Shown here one piece after another: positions 783 to 39,759 of a DNA stretch of 64,000 bases. The stretch comes from a virus: the IMG/VR virus record IMGVR_UViG_3300045993_000562, positions 12,148 through 76,147 of that record; one strand, written 5' to 3'. Each line of letters opens with the position of its first letter. Position 1 is the first letter of the stretch. The notes beneath the pieces were generated by a model. It ran no database searches, had not been told where the DNA came from, and was given only the letters and a program-made list of their open reading frames with translations. The position numbers and the translations under genes were made by a program.

Positions 783-861
783 TGGGGGGCCAGATAGGAC
801 TCGAACCTATATTGATCCAGTTACACGGCTACCGCTTAGAAGGCGGTTGTGATACTGACCC
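783..861 (-). tRNA. Atypical tRNA-Arg(TCT)-like RNA without a canonical D-arm
   Basis: Acceptor GGGTCAG/CTGGCCC + C-CCA; anticodon arm ACCGC-CTTCTAA-GCGGT; T-arm ATAGG-TTCGAGT-CCTAT; only 7 nt between acceptor and anticodon stems. Confidence 0.75.
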
Positions 862-2426: not shown

Positions 2427-5013
2427 AGTCTGCGCACTTCTGGCATCCTTCGCTGTAGATAATGTTACTAGATTCGCATACCTCACACTTTTGACCCTCC
2501 GCTTTCTCACCATCTTTAATAAGGGTAGATAGGAACTTCTTAATTTGGAATAGGAAAGATCCCACAAAGATATCCTCCACCTGATCCAGGGTATGAACAA
2601 TGTTCCTTATCAGAATACCATGTCTTAGACACATGCTTATAACTCTGGCTATCTTAGTGGCATTACTATCTGCCCCGCTCTTATCCATTGTTGCCTCAAT
2701 GTGTCGTTCGGGAATACCCTTACGTCTAGCTAGCTCTACTAAGTGCTCCATAGCACCAGTAGTAGTTACACTCTTTTCATGGCTATTGGTGTGCACAAAT
2801 AATGCGAAAGGTCTAGTCTGTTCCTCATTCCAGATAATCGTCAAGTACCACTTACGATCTTCTGCTTTAAGGATCTTCATAGTTGCAGGGGAGCTATCAG
2901 GCAACTTAACATCACTAAGGATTATCTCCTCATCAGTAGATTCAGCGTTAAGCTCATCTTTAGCAGCCAATACTGAGGTCATAGTTCCAGACCGGTAGGT
3001 AGTTACGCCCTTCACATAATTAGACTTATACGCATCTAAGTAGATGTCACCAAAGGATGTGAACGGATACTCATTAGGCACGTTAACCGTCTTGCTCATA
3101 GCGGAATCAATCCACTTAGCAAATCCGGTCAGGTCATTGACGTGGTCGTTTACTGACATACTAACAGTGGTAGCTGCCCAGTCTGCCGTAGGATCCCACT
3201 CACCAATACGCTTCATGAATCGGACTCCGTAGTCCTCACACAGAACCTCTTTAGTTAATCCGCGGTTCTTGTCTATCTTATAAACAATCCCATTAGGGTC
3301 AATACCACGGAGGATTTCCTCATCACCCTCTTTTGCAAGTTTGAACATCTCTGTCTCAAACCACTCCCCCTCAAACCACCTAGGGGTTACTTTAGATATG
3401 TGATCTGGCATAGCGTTAACTATAACAGTGCGGATATACTCATGCATGAAAACCGGCTCTAAACCTCCGGACACTACGTTTGCAAATATGGAAGTGTTTC
3501 CAGTAGGCTGTATAGACAGTAGAGAGCTGTTGCGGATACCAGTCTTTCCCATTCTATCCAATACTGATTGAGGTAGTCCTAGACTCTTAACAAAAGCCCC
3601 GGCTACGTGTTTCTCAGGTTGACATAATGGGAACATGCCTTTTTCTTCTGCAAGGGTTACGGAATACGTGTAGGAGGTTTGGGCTATAGTCCTCATAAGG
3701 TCTTCACGAATAGTGTTTGCTTTTTCAGACCCCAGTCTCGTCTTGAGCATATACAATGCTGAGCCCCACCCAAGAATACCAACCCCAATGCGTCTTTTGT
3801 TGCGCATGGAGAACTCGTACTCAGGTAATGGAGCCTTAGATAAATCACTTACGTTATCTAAGAATCTTACCAGGTATTCAGTGTACATCTTTACTTTTTC
3901 CAGATCAAAACCAGTTCTTGTGTTGTTCAAGAAGTGTACAAGGTTTAGTGAACCCAAGTTACATACGTTGCCTGGGGACAATGTTTGCTCTCCGCAAGGA
4001 TTCGTAGCAAATATGGTTTCTAGGTAATTCAAAGGGCCATAGTAATTAGCACGGTCAAGGAACAATATACCAGGTTCCGCCCTATTGTAGGTGGACTCCA
4101 TGATCAGGTTCCACAACCACTTTACAGAAACCGTGTTATGGATAACCACAGGATATCCTTTAGATTTCCACAGGCCTATATCCCCGTTCCACTCTTGTTT
4201 ATACTTTTCAAAAGTAGTTTCAGGGAACATTAAGTCCCACTTATCTAATTCCTGGATTTCTGCTGCACTATCGTTTACGCTAGATTCAAGTTCAGAAATA
4301 CGTACCACTCTATCCATGAACTCATCCGTACAATTAACGGAGATATTAAACTTAGACAGGCGGCCGGGTTGCTGTTTAGCAGTAATGAATTCTACAAGGT
4401 CAGGGTGCCAGCAGTCTAAAACTCCCATCATTGCGCCTTTACGGATCTTACCCTTAGCTCTTTTATTTGAAGATTTCTTACCAGACCCAGAGGTGATGAT
4501 ATCGGAAGCCCTATCAAACAGCTCCATGTACTTAACTGCCCCGGGGGACTCAACTCCAATACCATGAATGAAGGATCCTCTAGGACGTATGTAGCTAAAG
4601 TTCTCCCCCCAGCCACCCTCTGATTTAAGGGTGTTAGCCTGATCATTCAGAGTCTTCATTATGTTGTTAAGGGAGTCAATATCGTGTGAGGCCCTTGGAG
4701 CAACATAACAATTCATAAGAGTAGTAGACTTCCACTCAGTTCCCGCGTTAGCATAAATGCGTCCGCCAGAAGTGGCTTTGAATCCACTAAGTAGGTCGTA
4801 GAACTTATCCGTCCACTCCCTCTGTAAATCTGATGTTTTTTCCATTGATGCGACGGCGGTGGCTACTCGCAACATCGTATCATTTACATCTTTATCGTTG
4901 TGGTCTTTATAAGTAGAGGCCCAGATTTCTTCTGAGAATCCGTCTTCAAAAACTGTTTGTGAAGTTGATTGTACTGCCTGAGTTGTATCTCGTTGTTCTA
5001 TTATCATTTCCAT
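2404..5013 (-). CDS. nrdJ: Ribonucleotide reductase, class II (adenosylcobalamin-dependent)
   Basis: SGGRI, MNCYV, TNPCGEQ, QPTGNTS, KGVTTYR motifs; C-terminal CxxC...CxxCGxSKC tail; no adjacent beta subunit. Confidence 0.88.
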   Translation of the reverse strand: MEMIIEQRDTTQAVQSTSQTVFEDGFSEEIWASTYKDHNDKDVNDTMLRVATAVASMEKTSDLQREWTDKFYDLLSGFKATSGGRIYANAGTEWKSTTLMNCYVAPRASHDIDSLNNIMKTLNDQANTLKSEGGWGENFSYIRPRGSFIHGIGVESPGAVKYMELFDRASDIITSGSGKKSSNKRAKGKIRKGAMMGVLDCWHPDLVEFITAKQQPGRLSKFNISVNCTDEFMDRVVRISELESSVNDSAAEIQELDKWDLMFPETTFEKYKQEWNGDIGLWKSKGYPVVIHNTVSVKWLWNLIMESTYNRAEPGILFLDRANYYGPLNYLETIFATNPCGEQTLSPGNVCNLGSLNLVHFLNNTRTGFDLEKVKMYTEYLVRFLDNVSDLSKAPLPEYEFSMRNKRRIGVGILGWGSALYMLKTRLGSEKANTIREDLMRTIAQTSYTYSVTLAEEKGMFPLCQPEKHVAGAFVKSLGLPQSVLDRMGKTGIRNSSLLSIQPTGNTSIFANVVSGGLEPVFMHEYIRTVIVNAMPDHISKVTPRWFEGEWFETEMFKLAKEGDEEILRGIDPNGIVYKIDKNRGLTKEVLCEDYGVRFMKRIGEWDPTADWAATTVSMSVNDHVNDLTGFAKWIDSAMSKTVNVPNEYPFTSFGDIYLDAYKSNYVKGVTTYRSGTMTSVLAAKDELNAESTDEEIILSDVKLPDSSPATMKILKAEDRKWYLTIIWNEEQTRPFALFVHTNSHEKSVTTTGAMEHLVELARRKGIPERHIEATMDKSGADSNATKIARVISMCLRHGILIRNIVHTLDQVEDIFVGSFLFQIKKFLSTLIKDGEKAEGQKCEVCESSNIIYSEGCQKCADCGSSKCG

Positions 5014-5125
5014 CTCGTTATTATTATGTGGGTACTTCTACTACCAAAAACATACCAGAATTTTTCAGTGAACTGTTATGTTAATACAAATTTATCTAAA
5101 AAACAAGGTTTTAAAATCCAATGAA

Positions 5126-5545: not shown

Positions 5546-5998
5546 GCGTACTCCTGGTTAAGTTAAAAATCTAATGCCTTTTCTCATCATGCCTTATGCA
5601 CATCTCGAGCACGGCCCGGACAACCCCTAGGTTGGTAGGGACGTTCTCAGCTGATGTGCGCAATCCAAGTATAGAGTAGCTCTATACGACGTGCGTACAC
5701 GTACAAAATACAAAAGGTGAAACTTTGAAACTTGTGTGTATACTGATTTCCGATAGGAAATTGGTTTAGCTCTTCGAAGCTTATCAATAGTATAAGTACT
5801 AATAGATCTCGAGCTCGCTCTCCACCTGCTGCTACCAATGACGAAGGAAATTGGTAGTGCTTTGATGAAGAGTGGTAACCGTAAAGTGTAACACTTCACT
5901 CACCACCGATACCTTTAACACCACTAGTCGAAACTATGGGCCTTAGATAAGTGGATATATACTATACTCACAAATTTCTTATACCGCAAATATTCGTA

Positions 5999-6253: not shown

Positions 6254-6332
6254 GTTATCTCCTTTCAGTTAGTTTTAGTGTTACCTAGTCAAACCCCTGA
6301 GTAAACAAGGGCCTGACGAAGTGCACTTACTG

Positions 6333-8813
6333 TTACAAACGTGGATCCAGACCTTTTTCCTTACCCAGCTCAGCAATCATCTTAACCATGAGTTCGGTTC
6401 TACGTTCACCTTTGTCGCTCAGCAAAGCCAAGGTCAATTCGTGCTCCTTGATAGAAGTACGCATTTTACCATTAGTTTTTTTCTGTTCGCAAAGCTTATC
6501 GTAACGTAGCCAAAAATCATAACCGTAGACAATTGTGAGGTAGGATTTGTTCCGAACCTTCATGTACGGTGCAACTTCCGGCTTGTAGTAACGAGGCTTA
6601 ACTACGATGCCCTCCATACCTTCGGCTGTAGTCTTCTTATTGAAGAACTCCTGAGCTTCCAGCAAACCTACTGCAGTGTTTACAACGATAAACTCATCGT
6701 CAGAGACCTTGCTGTAAGCCTCATCTGCACTCATGGTTGTAACCTGCTCCACCCCATCAATACTAAGTATTGAGAATGGTTTAGCGTGAGGCTCCCCAAC
6801 TTCCCCATACAACGCCAACTGTTGAAAGAAGACATTGAGGAACTCTTGACGTTCATCCAGTTTCAACTCTTTATGCAACGTGAGTTTAGCTAGCTCTTCA
6901 TCATGATCCAAATCAGTCAGCTCATTGAGAACCAGATCACCGTAAGCCTGAAAGTCTCTATTAATGAGACCAGCACCCAGTAGAGACCAAGGCATCAGCT
7001 CACAGTCTAGGATCAACTCGCTTTTCCAGAAGTCTAGTTTAACGAATTTATCGAAGGCGTCACTGATCAGCTTCTGAATACCATCCTGGTGAACTACATA
7101 CCCATTACGAGACACAGCGAAAGACTTCTCAGGAGTATCACGATACAGATAGAGTTGGCCACGAGAGCCCATGTACTTAGGCTCAATGACAACCTCCTCA
7201 ACACCGTAGTCCTTGAAGTACTTCAATGCCTCTTCTAGGGACTCGATGTCATCCTTGGTAGAACGAGCCGGAGCCATTGTACCAGACACGTACTGCACTC
7301 GTGAGTTTTCCAACCTGCGCAGAGTCTTCAAGTCGTCATCCGACAAGTCATACTGTTTCAAACTGAACTCTTGTTCCACTTTGATCGGAGTTACTGCATC
7401 GGTACGAAGAGCCTTTTCCTCGTACTCAAACAGTTTTTCACAATCAACTTGAATCAAACGGTCTTGTTCAGCCATGATCACCATTGCCGATAACTTACCT
7501 CCGTAGACGGCACCAGTATCCAGCATATACTTGTTCTTATAGTTGATCCGCTGAGAACAATGAGCTACATGGCCCATTATGTGCATAGGGTGGTTACCCT
7601 TAGCTTCAGTGAATAAGAACTCATAATGAGGGCGGGCATCATCAGCCATAAACCTACGCAAGTTACGTTGTTCACGTTGGGCGAAGTCTGACACCTTGCC
7701 GATGAACTCGTTCTTGCATGGTGCGTGAGTTACGTACACGGTTGGAGCGTTGATACGAGTTAGCTTCAAGTAAGGTACGGAACGTGCCCATATCTCTACC
7801 ACCTTATCAGCGTACTCTTGGTTTTCCGGCTTGAGCAAGAATCCTAATGAACTGAAGGATTTAGCTTCTAAGTCCAAGTTGGGATCAATCTCACCGAGGA
7901 TACGTTTCACAACGTAGTTCTCATGATTGGCACGCACTACTATGGCACCCCTGGCGTTTACCAGAGTCCACACCGTGTCAACTATCTCCTTAGTGAAACC
8001 ACCTTTGTCCAAGTAGTCACCGATCAGTACTATACGCACATTGTCATGAGTATAGGTTGAGTCTACAATCCGTAACATATCCATCAGAGCGGTGTTATGT
8101 TCGTGGACGTCACCTACTATCACAAACGTATCATCACCCTCCAGAGTGTAGTTAGGTAACATGGCCAACCCGTTAGAATCAACGGTTACAACAAAGCCGC
8201 CTTCCACGTTAGGACTCTGATTGATACGATGACGCATACGATATACAGCGTCGTAGTCTTTAGAACGGGTAGATGGCATCACCTCAGTCTTGAATCGTTT
8301 TGCTTGAGCTGCAATAACAACACGATACTTGTGCTCACGGCCTTCCGGTATAGCGTCATAAAACTCAGAATGAGGCAGGTCAAACAGGACTAGTTGCACA
8401 TGGTAACATGCATCCTTGGCAATCCTAGATACTTCATTGCGGAACCAAGGATCCAATCCCGTCGTGTCCACAATGACGTATGGAGTATTGACGGGGAAAG
8501 AGGTGAAGGCCTTTAACTCTGCGAACAGAAGTTGGAAAGCTTGCTCAGACAGTTCCTGCATCTCAGTAGTACAATAACTAGGGGTTTCCTTACCGGTAAG
8601 CACACTGCGGTAAGCATCACTAGTAAGAACAGAGACTGGACGCAGGCCTACCTTAATCTCATTAAACAGCTTCAGATATCCCTTCTCCAACTCAGCCGCC
8701 AAGTTCCAAGCGAATGTAGTCTTACCACAACGAGAAGGTCCAGCCAGAATGAACACCGTGTTTAATGGCGCTGAGATCTGAACTTGACTCTTTTTCAAAG
8801 CAACGGCGGTCAT
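6333..8813 (-). CDS. pnkp: Polynucleotide kinase-phosphatase-ligase (bacterial-type Pnkp)
   Basis: P-loop GPSRCGKTT; metallophosphoesterase GDVH/GDYLDKG/NHE; ligase EPKYMGSR, EGIVVKP, KVR; C-terminal DPRL. Confidence 0.92.
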   Translation of the reverse strand: MTAVALKKSQVQISAPLNTVFILAGPSRCGKTTFAWNLAAELEKGYLKLFNEIKVGLRPVSVLTSDAYRSVLTGKETPSYCTTEMQELSEQAFQLLFAELKAFTSFPVNTPYVIVDTTGLDPWFRNEVSRIAKDACYHVQLVLFDLPHSEFYDAIPEGREHKYRVVIAAQAKRFKTEVMPSTRSKDYDAVYRMRHRINQSPNVEGGFVVTVDSNGLAMLPNYTLEGDDTFVIVGDVHEHNTALMDMLRIVDSTYTHDNVRIVLIGDYLDKGGFTKEIVDTVWTLVNARGAIVVRANHENYVVKRILGEIDPNLDLEAKSFSSLGFLLKPENQEYADKVVEIWARSVPYLKLTRINAPTVYVTHAPCKNEFIGKVSDFAQREQRNLRRFMADDARPHYEFLFTEAKGNHPMHIMGHVAHCSQRINYKNKYMLDTGAVYGGKLSAMVIMAEQDRLIQVDCEKLFEYEEKALRTDAVTPIKVEQEFSLKQYDLSDDDLKTLRRLENSRVQYVSGTMAPARSTKDDIESLEEALKYFKDYGVEEVVIEPKYMGSRGQLYLYRDTPEKSFAVSRNGYVVHQDGIQKLISDAFDKFVKLDFWKSELILDCELMPWSLLGAGLINRDFQAYGDLVLNELTDLDHDEELAKLTLHKELKLDERQEFLNVFFQQLALYGEVGEPHAKPFSILSIDGVEQVTTMSADEAYSKVSDDEFIVVNTAVGLLEAQEFFNKKTTAEGMEGIVVKPRYYKPEVAPYMKVRNKSYLTIVYGYDFWLRYDKLCEQKKTNGKMRTSIKEHELTLALLSDKGERRTELMVKMIAELGKEKGLDPRL

Positions 8814-10090
8814 GCTATTACCTCCTTTTTCTTAAAATGTAACAGGATAGAGGAATGGATACCGTCTACGCTGTCACCAATTCCACGTAGGTCATCTGGG
8901 AGGATGCCATGCTGAGTCAGTACCTCACTAAACTTACTAGTACCGAGTTCCCACTTATGGTCGCTGTGACGAGAGCCTTCTTCTGAGATGTCATAGTTGA
9001 CGTTGAAGTCCTTATTAGGAACGGTGATTACAATCTGGTTGTAGTCGGTTTTCAACAGGGCTCGAAGTAACGACATGGCTTGATCCAATTCCATGTGCTC
9101 AATCACTTCAGTGAGTAAGATATCCGCCCCTTCTAGCATATAAGCAGCCGTATCAACATATCCTGCATTGATCTCCTCACAGGTAACTACAACGTTTTCC
9201 AGCCCCCAACCTTTAGCTTTTCCAGTGCTGTCTTCTGCCACCACTGGATCAGCATCAAATGCATCTACCATGCCATACTTTTTAGCTAGGCGTTTGGAGA
9301 AGAACAACTCTCCACATCCAACGTCTACTAAACGCTCTCCACCTTTTAGTATCTCGGCCACTGCATCAAAGCGGTGTCTGCGAGTGTCACCATAATTCAT
9401 CACAGTGCCGGCTAGTTGCATACTTTCACGATACGTGTTGAACGTATGCTTATCCGAGAACACGGTGCGGTTGAACAGGTAACGGATGAAGTACGGTGCA
9501 TTGACACGGTTCAGCGCACGAATGTAGAACTCGATTGCAGAAGCGTTCATGTCAATGTAACACTCTTTATCGTACATAGCCTGAATGAGACAGAATACAA
9601 CCATCACGTTCAGAATAGTCTGTACCGAGTTACCCTCGATATGTATGGTGTACATTTGTCCGGATAGAATCCCCATCTCGATTTTAGCCATGTTCACGAA
9701 GTGACGAGCACAAGCTGAAGCAATCTTAGGGTTTGAAACCTTGATTACTGTCTCAACGTAGCTAGTGAATTCCGGTGTATCAAACTCACTCTCTTTCTTG
9801 AGAGCTGAGGCTAATGCAGTAGTCACCATGCCTATTGGGAGATATGGGCTGCTGTACCTGGTTTTATCAAGGTATTCCCATTCGCTAAAACTTACAAAAG
9901 AGACTTCAGTGTCTGAATCCTTAAATAGGAGTTTGAACTCTGAATCATCTGCTTTATTAAACCAACCATATAGTTTTCCTTTACGAAGATCTCTTGTAAA
10001 AGGCTCCAGCGAGGTGCGGATGGTTGCTGGATTTTTGGACAAAATAAAAGACAACTTGGGGTTATTAGACCCTACTTTCAATATAGACAT
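8810..10090 (-). CDS. hen1: Hen1 RNA 2'-O-methyltransferase
   Basis: N-terminal LSFILSKNP and YLDKTRY ligase-activating domain; DVGCGE, EVIEH, TVPNKDFN, RHSDHKWE; ATGA overlap with pnkp. Confidence 0.88.
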   Translation of the reverse strand: MSILKVGSNNPKLSFILSKNPATIRTSLEPFTRDLRKGKLYGWFNKADDSEFKLLFKDSDTEVSFVSFSEWEYLDKTRYSSPYLPIGMVTTALASALKKESEFDTPEFTSYVETVIKVSNPKIASACARHFVNMAKIEMGILSGQMYTIHIEGNSVQTILNVMVVFCLIQAMYDKECYIDMNASAIEFYIRALNRVNAPYFIRYLFNRTVFSDKHTFNTYRESMQLAGTVMNYGDTRRHRFDAVAEILKGGERLVDVGCGELFFSKRLAKKYGMVDAFDADPVVAEDSTGKAKGWGLENVVVTCEEINAGYVDTAAYMLEGADILLTEVIEHMELDQAMSLLRALLKTDYNQIVITVPNKDFNVNYDISEEGSRHSDHKWELGTSKFSEVLTQHGILPDDLRGIGDSVDGIHSSILLHFKKKEVIA

Positions 10091-19135: not shown

Positions 19136-19210
19136 TGGTCGGTTAGGTAAGACTCGAACTTACATGCTCCTGGCCCCAAACCAGGCGACTCACCTTTAGC
19201 CTACTAACCG
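19136..19210 (-). tRNA. tRNA-Pro(TGG)
   Basis: Cloverleaf, CCTGG-TTTGGGG-CCAGG, encoded CCA. Confidence 0.92.
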
Positions 19211-19380
19211 AAATACCCTGATCTAATGCTAATCTGTAACTTTACCCAGAACAACATCACTTCAATTCTTCTGACTTCAATTAGCTCCCCTGGAGTTTTA
19301 GAGGCCATACTACATCTATAACAGCATACAGCTGGTAGTATGAAGAATGCTGCGCTTCTTTTAAAGAATGTTAGTTCCAT
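19204..19380 (-). CDS. Possible 58-aa protein between tRNAs
   Basis: GGAG RBS; MELTFFKRSAAFFILPAV...; stop overlaps the tRNA-Pro 5' end. Confidence 0.35.
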   Translation of the reverse strand: MELTFFKRSAAFFILPAVCCYRCSMASKTPGELIEVRRIEVMLFWVKLQISIRSGYFG

Positions 19381-19395
19381 ACATACTCCGTTGAT

Positions 19396-19470
19396 TGGCG
19401 CCCAATGTCTGATTCAAACAGACGACCTACCGCTTACAAGGCGGTTGCTCTATCACTGAGCTAATCGGGC
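19396..19470 (-). tRNA. tRNA-Thr(TGT)
   Basis: ACCGC-CTTGTAA-GCGGT, encoded CCA. Confidence 0.92.
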
Positions 19471-19475
19471 AAAAC

Positions 19476-19561
19476 TGGTGGGTAGGCCAGGACTCGAACC
19501 TAGATAGCCGGAGGCGACAGATTTACAGTCTGCTGATTTAACCATATTTACCATCCTACCC
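19476..19561 (-). tRNA. tRNA-Tyr(GTA)
   Basis: GCAGA-CTGTAAA-TCTGT, long variable arm, CCA. Confidence 0.92.
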
Positions 19562-19568
19562 TCAATTT

Positions 19569-19644
19569 TGGCTCCCCGACGTGGACTCGAACCACGGACC
19601 TAAGCATTAACAGTGCTTTGCTCTACCGACTGAGCTATCGAGGA
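19569..19644 (-). tRNA. tRNA-Asn(GTT)
   Basis: AAGCA-CTGTTAA-TGCTT, CCA. Confidence 0.94.
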
Positions 19645-19654
19645 ATACAACTAT

Positions 19655-19687
19655 AAAACAAAAACCCCAGATTTTTAGGCCTGGGGT
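19655..19687 (-). terminator. Intrinsic terminator of putative attenuator
   Basis: ACCCCAG-GCCTAAAAAT-CTGGGGT followed by TTTTGTTTT, immediately upstream of tRNA-Asn. Confidence 0.85.
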
Positions 19688-19713
19688 CGGATTCTTTGGA
19701 ACTACGAAACGTT

Positions 19714-19800
19714 CTAACTAATCTTAACCCCGAGCACGGTCGAGTTATCCTGTGAAGGATTACTTGTTGGTGTGTAATAGGAGTTATAGATCGGTTTCAT
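19714..19800 (-). CDS. Putative attenuator leader peptide MKPIYNSYYTPTSNPSQDNSTVLGVKIS
   Basis: 28 codons, 12 of codons 3-21 are N/Y/T/P; overlaps antiterminator strand GGGGTTAAGATT. Confidence 0.75.
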   Translation of the reverse strand: MKPIYNSYYTPTSNPSQDNSTVLGVKIS

Positions 19801-19807
19801 AGTGAGT

Positions 19808-19836
19808 ATATTAACTCAGAACCAGGAGAGTTGCAA
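19808..19836 (-). promoter_or_regulatory. Sigma70-type promoter, leaderless start
   Basis: TTGCAA-N17-TAATAT-N7-ATG. Confidence 0.6.
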
Positions 19837-19868
19837 GCCTATTTTCATAAACTTGCAACTTTACCCCT

Positions 19869-20261
19869 TTACAACGCTTCGATCATTTCCTTGATTTCTT
19901 CAGGCGTCTTGTTTGCCAGTGCTTCACCTTCTTTGGCAGCCAAGATAGACAAGAGATACTGCTTCTTAGTCTTATTAGCCACTGCGTTAGCAGAAGCTTC
20001 ATCTTCAGCCAGGCGAGTATCAATCACATGCTTGATGATGTCAAACTTCAACTGAGTCGTAGTGCTGACCTCAGTTTTCTTCGTTACGAACGAAATCTCG
20101 TTACCAGATTTTAACTCCTGGTACAGAGGTTTGATCATATCGTCCAGATTTACAGAACCAGCACGGCCTGAAAGTGGAACGTCAAAGAGGTCTTCTACTA
20201 CCAACGAGCCCTTAGGCGTGTCGAAGCGAAGTTTAGCACGAGCTGCTTTTTCGAATAACAT
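19869..20261 (-). CDS. Conserved phage hypothetical protein
   Basis: MLFEKAARAKLRF..G.L.VEDLFD pattern, coiled C-terminus. Confidence 0.7.
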   Translation of the reverse strand: MLFEKAARAKLRFDTPKGSLVVEDLFDVPLSGRAGSVNLDDMIKPLYQELKSGNEISFVTKKTEVSTTTQLKFDIIKHVIDTRLAEDEASANAVANKTKKQYLLSILAAKEGEALANKTPEEIKEMIEAL

Positions 20262-36129: not shown

Positions 36130-36430
36130 ATCAAATGGGCCGGGATCATTATCACCCAGCCCACTCTATTCTAGCTCTGGTTAGAAACCGCTAGACAGGT
36201 TCCGCTTAGGCTTGTGCAGCCCATGCTCCTTGCGAGTCGTTTGCAGGTATTTTACTTTTGCCATTTACGTCGGTCAACTGACGATTCCATCGAATGTTAG
36301 TAATACTAGATCGAGTCTGTATCTGGCCCATTAAGAAGACCCCTTGGTAAGAGTCTTTTTGGTGGACCGGCCGGGGTACTGCCCCCCGGGTCTCCAATAT
36401 CTTTCGCATTCAATGCTTTACAGGTTACCC
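36130..36430 (-). ncRNA. ssrA: Circularly permuted (two-piece) tmRNA, tag (A)ANDSQGAWAAQA
   Basis: Acceptor piece ends CCGGTCC-A-CCA at 36360; 30-nt intervening hairpin; coding piece starts GGGCCAG at 36329 (G3-U70); resume codon GCA at 36244, stop at 36206. Confidence 0.9.
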
Positions 36431-36551
36431 TGTGAATTCTTCTTAAATAGAGGGCCTATTCTACCTCTACGTAGTTGTAAGTCCAGCTTGTATTTTAACA
36501 CAAGGGCGGAATCGAATCTATGTGTATAAGACTTATTTTGTAACACTGAGT

Positions 36552-39110: not shown

Positions 39111-39759
39111 TGGGCGGTACTGGACTTGAACCAGTGACCAAAGGATTCGTACCACTTCGTCTTTCGACGCCAACACTCCAAACTCCACCTTAGACTATAT
39201 ATCACCATCAGCGAGCTTCATTTCCTTTTAAGGATTATTGTTCGTGGTCTGGACTATGCTATCACCGTATTTACCCTTTAATACCTACTACTCTTCAATC
39301 GAGGCGTGGTCTATTTCGTAAACTTAGGCATTCCGTCTCTAGTCTCTACACCTTCCTTAAATCAGATTAGACACCTATTCGCTCCGTAGAGGGTGTTCTG
39401 GAAATCTGCACCACGGGATACAACTATTGTTTAAACCTTCATAATACAAGGTCTCCCAATTAAGGCTTGGCTCGGCGTTGGCATTCTAATTACAGGTACA
39501 CCCCTCTCTCATAGTCATGACGGAGTGTTTAAGTTTAGTGACTAACCTATTATTAGTGAAGCGTCCGCCGAATTTACGGAAATTCATCTAGCGTCTTTCG
39601 ATTGAGTTGTTACGCCAGTGTCCCGTGGAATGCCGTTACCGACAATTGCTTGACGGGAAAGGGGGCTTAGACTCACAGTAAAGACTACCAACTCATTTTT
39701 CACTAGCGCACAATTTTACTGATGAGTCCTCTGCTCTAAACCAACTGAGCTAACCGCCC
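39111..39759 (-). tRNA. tRNA-Ile2(CAT) interrupted by a group I intron (exons 39722-39759 and 39111-39147)
   Basis: Spliced anticodon arm GAGGA-CTCAT^AA-TCCTT; body resembles bacterial Ile2 tRNAs. Confidence 0.88.
39148..39721 (-). mobile_element. Group I self-splicing intron (Azoarcus tRNA-Ile type), 574 nt, no ORF
   Basis: AAATTCGGCG, AACGCCGAGCCAAG, GGTGTAGAGACTAGA, GCATAGTCCAG core; 5' exon ends in U, intron ends in G. Confidence 0.9.

Follow-up and report, generated by a model that had tools for sequence, protein, structure and literature searches.

The stretch of viral DNA analysed here (the window: 64,000 nt of the 76-kb IMG/VR virus record IMGVR_UViG_3300045993_000562, ~43% complete by CheckV) carries on its minus strand a short leader unit made up of a predicted promoter, a 28-codon open reading frame (ORF) and an intrinsic terminator, which stands directly ahead of genes for tRNA-Asn, -Tyr, -Thr and -Pro. 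From its sequence and from RNA-fold modelling we read the unit as a putative ribosome-mediated leader-peptide transcription attenuator that gates this phage tRNA block, a reading in which our confidence is evenly balanced. The further proposal, that the leaderless and multivalent leader would act as a sensor of decoding speed, with transcription of precisely the matching tRNA genes turned on by slow reading of their codons, is tentative and falls slightly on the doubtful side. What carries the attenuator reading is that its geometry (promoter, short ORF, and the pairings 1:2, 2:3 and 3:4 among four RNA segments), as proposed in an earlier note on this DNA (the original prediction), is conserved in a second lineage and, in a folding model with a masking ribosome, switches far more than shuffled sequences do.

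Layout and conservation of the leader unit

Promoter, ORF, terminator and the four tRNA genes are all found where the original prediction had placed them (Table 1). The tRNA block is called at 19644-19136 by both ARAGORN and Rfam, and the ORF has the 3 Asn, 3 Tyr, 3 Thr and 3 Pro codons ascribed to it. The predicted promoter agrees with the consensus at only 8 of 12 positions and is, for that reason, not listed by the promoter tool; its counterpart in contig L004 of the second lineage, TTGCAA-N16-TAAAAT with a TG extension, is listed. Counted from the end of the -10 hexamer, the A of the leader ATG is base 8 in the window and base 7 in L004, so that in both lineages the ATG coincides with the predicted start of transcription. 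An inverted repeat (8 bp, with a 14-nt loop) lies between the promoter and the stop codon of the preceding gene, which encodes a 130-amino-acid (130-aa) protein. The 3' arm of the repeat holds the -35 hexamer; in L004 and its companion contig L005 a G-C to A-T exchange is seen on both arms. The repeat is possibly an operator or the 3' hairpin of an mRNA.

Strong terminators on the minus strand are few, only two or three in the first 40 kb, and that of the leader unit is one of them. Just 10 nt separate its end from tRNA-Asn, which leaves no room for a promoter, and the tRNA genes therefore depend on read-through. A separate tRNA promoter at that place is ruled out, and a promoter inside the leader was rejected as well, the spacing from TTCCAA to TAAAA(A/T) not being conserved between the lineages (18 vs 21 nt).

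L004 and L005 were recovered in one metagenome scan; the two contigs are 98% identical to each other and diverge inside tRNA-Val. Their neighbour gene is 71% identical to the 130-aa gene of the window, whose relatives extend from P0002 (71% identity) and P0004 (67%) to more distant ones down to P0015. Both contigs keep the inverted repeat, the promoter, the ATG, the open frame, the terminator and tRNA-Asn. Their frame has 29 codons (MMNTNINSAIYTPSNPSQDD[G/V]VLFGVRIS), and the length differences between the ORFs of the two lineages, 3 nt and 6 nt, are both in frame. Behind tRNA-Asn there follow a small ORF (and no tRNA-Tyr), tRNA-Thr, tRNA-Pro and a homologue of a 102-aa gene; the L005 array goes on with tRNA-Val, -Asp and -Gln.

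The stretch between stop codon and terminator is identical at 55 of 61 positions (90%) in the two lineages, a run of 27 invariant nucleotides included. This exceeds the identity at third positions of identical residues in the adjacent gene (56%) and also that of tRNA-Asn (84%) and tRNA-Pro (82%), which marks the stretch as a functional RNA or DNA element. The ~230 nt of intergenic DNA as a whole are conserved well above the neutral level, promoter hexamers and ATG among them. The only relatives in IMG/VR (L002/L003, at 50% identity, and L008) are without the leader unit, and since the relatives at 50% identity have neither the tRNAs nor the leader, the unit travels with the tRNA block.

Near-identical DNA is present in wetland and pond metagenomes, and the contigs of four wetland or pond DNA runs held no leader variants. 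No further copies were found in IMG/VR with the neighbouring proteins and three leader DNA patterns as queries, in INPHARED phages in either 'near' or 'distant' mode, or in GTDB genomes. Searched at E up to 1, the region 19645-19870 matched no Rfam family, T-boxes included. An origin of the leader from a degenerate tRNA was considered and rejected: there is no tRNA match, and the loop of the conserved hairpin does not resemble an anticodon loop.

Promoter and intrinsic terminator lying ~145 nt apart in an intergenic region are the usual signature of a small RNA, and an independent small gene, for a ~145-nt RNA or for a peptide of 28-29 residues, would also fit the high nucleotide conservation; the phage does encode another non-coding RNA, a transfer-messenger RNA (tmRNA). 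The tRNAs would then be served by constitutive leakage through the terminator of that gene. We regard this as distinctly unlikely. The 5' third of the unit is its least conserved part, unlike the seed regions of small RNAs, and the C-terminal half of the peptide changes freely in its amino acids. A fixed product, moreover, has no need of the three-state switch described below, which shuffled sequences rarely give, and the tRNAs lack a separate promoter.

Table 1. Features of the leader unit and tRNA block (window coordinates)
Feature	Position	Strand	Remarks
Inverted repeat GTTGCAAG-N14-CTTGCAAC	19830-19859	-	Unique in window; conserved in L004/L005
Sigma-70-like promoter TTGCAA-N17-TAATAT (predicted)	19808-19836	-	Only match in window; 0.18 expected by chance
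28-codon leader ORF MKPIYNSYYTPTSNPSQDNSTVLGVKIS + TAG	19714-19800	-	Predicted leaderless; frame kept in L004/L005
Segment 1 (codons 2-7)	19780-19796	-	Pairs with segment 2 on free RNA (anti-antiterminator) in minimum free energy folds
In-ORF hairpin AGUAAUCCUUCACAGGAUAAC	19743-19764	-	Corresponding 18 nt identical in both lineages
Segment 2 GGGGUUAAGAUUAGUU, last ORF codons	19716-19731	-	Pairs with segment 1 or segment 3
27-nt invariant block	19696-19722	-	Spans stop codon and GAAC/GUUC hairpin with 8-nt loop; unique in window
Segment 3 AAUCCGACCCCAG	19681-19693	-	Antiterminator 3' arm, identical with terminator 5' arm
Intrinsic terminator	19655-19688	-	9-pair stem (19688-19663), 8-nt loop, U tract; conserved in L004
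tRNA-Asn(gtt)	19569-19644	-	ARAGORN, Rfam
tRNA-Tyr(gta)	19476-19561	-	ARAGORN, Rfam; small ORF here instead in L004/L005
tRNA-Thr(tgt)	19396-19470	-	ARAGORN, Rfam; only 59% identity to L004 tRNA-Thr
tRNA-Pro(tgg)	19136-19210	-	ARAGORN, Rfam

Alternative pairing and the modelled switch

In the minimum free energy folds of both leaders, segment 1 is paired with segment 2, the GGGGUY..GAUU/GAAUU end of the ORF, and the terminator is formed as well (z of -2.9 and -2.6). In contrast, the RNAalifold consensus of three sequences is the antiterminator, with segment 2 paired to AAUC/AAUUC..GACCCC; the two pairing states thus lie close in energy. The antiterminator that had been proposed by eye, GGGGTT..GATT with AATC.GACCCC, accordingly exists and is that consensus structure. 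The stop codon, TAG, comes directly after segment 2.

The effect of a ribosome was modelled by keeping 28 nt around the A-site codon unpaired and computing the probability that the terminator forms, at equilibrium and with an assumed footprint; the two lineages have segments 2-4 in common. On free RNA the terminator probability is 0.97 in the window and 0.97 in L004, and with the ribosome at the stop codon it is 0.98 in each. With the A site on codons 2-6 of the window leader it is 0.31-0.35, and ~0.75 on codons 7-8. In L004 it is 0.01-0.08 on codons 6-10, and 0.12-0.6 across codons 3-5 and 11-17; over codons 3-13 it covers 0.01-0.5. Dinucleotide shuffling of the RNA upstream of the terminator gave a three-state switch as strong as the native one in 2 of 260 trials for the window and in 0 of 230 for L004. 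When the N-terminal third was shuffled, the free-RNA terminator probability was as high as the native one in 8% (window) and 6% (L004) of trials.

A mechanism can be proposed in which the transcript would start at the A of the ATG, giving a leaderless mRNA. In untranslated RNA, including RNA that reads through from upstream genes, segment 1 would pair with segment 2, the 3:4 terminator would form and transcription would stop 10 nt before tRNA-Asn. A ribosome reaching the TAG would cover segment 2, and the terminator would form again. A ribosome stalled on the early codons (for Pro, Tyr and Asn in the window, for Asn and Thr in L004/L005) would cover segment 1 instead; segment 2 would then pair with segment 3, the terminator would be pre-empted and the polymerase would enter tRNA-Asn, -Tyr, -Thr and -Pro. 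In this way the supply of the controlled tRNAs would be subject to negative feedback by the unit. We infer the transcription start, the translation, the stalling and the regulatory outcome. Ribosomes could be slowed by codon-usage mismatch, by host shut-off or by host nucleases cleaving tRNAs of the Asn or Tyr type. That the unit is an on-demand counter to tRNA-targeting defences, as the original prediction had it, is speculation, compatible with published work on phage tRNAs (PMC10264068, PMC11555353).

The fold model masks 28 nt and is indifferent to the agent that masks them, and the terminator/antiterminator switch might be driven by a ligand other than the ribosome, for example a small RNA or an RNA-binding protein, of the phage or of the host, that attaches to the 5' part or to the invariant block. 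ORF and codon content would then be incidental. The strongest conservation is, after all, at the nucleotide level and in untranslated sequence: the invariance of the 27-nt block, 8-nt hairpin loop included, suggests sequence-specific recognition, and the conserved inverted repeat over the -35 hexamer hints at protein control, so that both could be protein sites. The ORF, for its part, has no Shine-Dalgarno site, and a second frame is open too. We nevertheless consider such a switch unlikely, given that the ATG lies exactly at the predicted start in both lineages, that the changes of length are in frame, that the stop codon comes directly after segment 2, and that the codon content fits the downstream tRNAs in both lineages; the leader, moreover, matches no Rfam family.

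Codon content and possible translation of the leader

Asn, Tyr, Thr and Pro together make up 12 of the 27 residues counted in the window leader, vs 18.2% of residues in the long ORFs of the phage. The figure first put forward, 12 of 19 codons, has the right count of matching codons and a chosen sub-range as its denominator; 12 of 27 is the fair figure. The 76-kb record has 151 ORFs of 24-34 codons that begin with ATG, and no other among them reaches three each of the four amino acids. The first 60 nt of the ORF are G-poor, which favours these amino acids, and the ORF's own shuffles were for that reason taken as the null. On that basis, 12 of 27 has p = 0.015 with mononucleotide and 0.052 with dinucleotide shuffles; if at least three of each are also required, a criterion that is post hoc, the values are 0.0007 and 0.0035. 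The L004 leader, set against Asn, Thr and Pro, gives p = 0.036-0.05. The L005 leader, set against its own confident array (Asn, Thr, Pro, Val, Asp and Gln), has 14 matching residues of 28 (p ~0.011-0.015), and 18 of 28 with Ser added (p ~0.002-0.003).

The N-terminal thirds of the two leaders have diverged and are still rich in matching residues (K-P-I-Y-N-S-Y in the window vs M-N-T-N-I-N-S-A-I). Tyr codons go from three in the window to one in L004/L005, where tRNA-Tyr is absent, a single comparison that does not amount to a correlation. The window ORF has the codon ACA twice and CCA once, and 11 of its 12 matching codons, ACC being the exception, could be read by the four anticodons under standard wobble rules if U34 is modified. 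The codon match to the downstream tRNAs is, in sum, suggestive and not decisive. The claim that the leader senses the same tRNAs that it precedes is plausible, with modest p values and in two related lineages only.

The five Ser codons of the window leader had been attributed to a lost or distant tRNA-Ser, an idea that gains a little from the end of the L005 array. There, at 6320-6490 and after tRNA-Gln, a 97-nt tRNA-Ser(gga) is called with low confidence by relaxed ARAGORN only, and it is followed by the 5' half of a Ser(GCU)-like gene that is cut by the contig end.

A T5-like phage, Klebsiella phage vB_KpnS_FZ41 (MK521907; L012), served as a negative control, and in none of its 14 tRNA blocks was a terminator seen together with a matching leader. 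This control phage has at 9073-9211 a 45-codon ORF, with the start MEDEDEDEDEDEV and Cys motifs, that ends 8 nt before tRNA-Asp. A simple scan found no terminator at this ORF, which is probably a real small protein gene.

The p value of ~0.05 under the strictest null, together with a window promoter that matches the consensus at 8 of 12 positions and escapes the promoter tool, is what one would cite for a plain operon boundary. The hairpin would then end or stabilize the upstream mRNA, a cut by RNase P at tRNA-Asn would leave a protective 3' end, and promoter, ORF and codon match would be coincidental. Conservation of the intergenic DNA above the neutral level, down to the promoter hexamers and the ATG, argues against this, as do the specificity of the switch behaviour to the native sequence and the absence of the whole unit from those distant relatives that have no tRNAs; we hold it to be very unlikely.

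A number of observations nevertheless weigh against the attenuator itself, and some of them concern translation. The leader ORF has no Shine-Dalgarno site, unlike the neighbouring genes, whose sites are strong (AAGGAG at the next gene downstream); if it is translated at all, its mRNA must therefore be leaderless. In both lineages the leader can be read without a stop in a second frame too, so that conservation of the ORF is by itself weak evidence, and substitutions between lineages in the C-terminal half of the ORF show no codon-position bias. The evidence for coding would thus come mainly from the ATG at the predicted start and the in-frame insertions and deletions. As to codon content, the G-poor 5' two-thirds of the ORF raise the expectation for Asn, Tyr, Thr and Pro to 7-8.4 of 27. 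As to the switch, the dip in terminator probability in the window is shallow (0.31). Only codons 2-6 (up to 8) are switch-sensitive there, so that the majority of the 12 matching codons, which fall within codons 9-21, have no effect on the modelled terminator. RNAalifold, applied to the three sequences, finds no strict two-sided compensatory substitution. Only two lineages are at hand, with about half of the leader common to both, and neither the 27-nt invariant block nor the upstream inverted repeat is explained by the attenuator model. In addition, the protein genes after tRNA-Pro are without a clear promoter of their own within the window, and the other tRNA genes of this phage (two for Leu, one for Arg, one at 786-861 found by Rfam only, and a split one with anticodon CAT) are without a leader, protein genes directly preceding them.

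Leaderless translation is a plausible proposition, by analogy, if the host is an alphaproteobacterium: in Caulobacter leaderless mRNAs are common and 375 of them are translated efficiently (PMC4117421). The window encodes a permuted, two-piece tmRNA of the alpha type at 36212-36433 on the minus strand (RF04321, 73 bits; RF01849, 62.8 bits), which gives a weak hint of an alphaproteobacterial host.

Known attenuators, other tRNAs and surroundings

Multivalent attenuators are familiar from the leaders thrL (Thr, Ile) and ilvL (Ile, Leu, Val), which stand beside trpL, hisL, pheL and leuL. The phage unit resembles leaders of the thrL/ilvL type in having a short ORF, apparently enriched in several regulatory amino acids, between a promoter and an intrinsic terminator, in the four-segment alternative pairing 1:2/2:3/3:4, and in its (here modelled) behaviour, by which free RNA and completed translation lead to termination and an early stall leads to read-through. 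It differs from them in that it precedes tRNA genes and not genes of biosynthetic enzymes, and would report tRNA supply or decoding speed instead of amino-acid supply, its product feeding back directly. It differs also in that its ORF has no Shine-Dalgarno site and is predicted to be leaderless, and in that its regulatory codons are scattered instead of forming a run, with the stop codon coming after segment 2.

Leader-peptide attenuation that acts on the translation apparatus and reads a charged cognate tRNA has a precedent in pheM-pheST of E. coli, but pheM regulates phenylalanyl-tRNA synthetase, for one amino acid and in a cellular genome, whereas the phage unit targets tRNA genes. T-box riboswitches likewise are terminator/antiterminator leaders that couple tRNA status to translation-related genes; in contrast to the phage leader, they work without an ORF, by direct binding of uncharged tRNA. 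To our knowledge, all described leader-peptide attenuators control genes of amino-acid biosynthesis or synthetase genes. The phage unit, in controlling tRNA genes, would fall outside every described family. It is nevertheless more aptly called a new form of leader-peptide attenuation than the candidate new system that had first been proposed. Literature searches, which did not cover old subscription literature, turned up no account of tRNA genes, those of phages included, under the control of a leader peptide, in agreement with the original prediction, which knew of none for phage tRNA clusters.

There is still debate over why phages carry tRNA genes and how they express them, with codon compensation and escape from tRNA-cleaving defences as the two leading views (PMC10264068, PMC11555353). 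These views offer a rationale for phage Asn, Tyr, Thr and Pro tRNAs when host tRNAs fail; the two papers concern the function of phage tRNAs, as distinct from the regulation considered here. If the attenuator reading is right, phage tRNAs would be supplied on demand, the block being on when matching codons are read slowly, and a textbook mechanism would extend to tRNA genes themselves. With its ~230 nt the unit is compact enough for transfer to a reporter, which makes the question of its function directly testable.

Transfer RNAs with GUN anticodons are the target set of colicin E5-type anticodon nucleases. The window tRNAs Asn(GUU) and Tyr(GUA), as well as Asn(GUU) and Asp(GUC, 5719-5793) of L005, all belong to this GUN-anticodon (queuosine) group. 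That the two tRNA-Thr genes of the window and L004 are so little alike (Table 1) suggests turnover inside the tRNA cluster. The spacer between tRNA-Thr and tRNA-Pro (window 19211-19395, minus strand) is 185 nt long and contains a 58-codon ORF; its L004 counterpart (4966-5100) has a 42-codon frame with the Cys/His motif CRCCHGALH. Neither spacer ORF has a Pfam match, and the idea, formed by eye, that an HNH remnant lies there is unsupported.

All genes around the leader and tRNA unit are on the minus strand, the 130-aa gene lying directly upstream of inverted repeat and leader. A metallophosphoesterase and a DSP-type phosphatase are encoded downstream, without a clear link to RNA repair. Elsewhere in the window, the tRNA at 786-861 (minus strand) scores 36.7 bits with Rfam and is missed by ARAGORN. 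The tRNA gene with anticodon CAT, at 39111-39759 on the minus strand, seems to be interrupted after the anticodon by ~590 nt of inserted sequence: its 5' half reads GGGCGGTTAGCTCAG...CTCAT, its 3' half ends in GGTTCAAGTCCAGTACCGCCCA, and ARAGORN makes no call. Inside it, at 39286-39639, there is a sub-threshold Rfam match to a group I intron (23.6 bits, E 0.0011).

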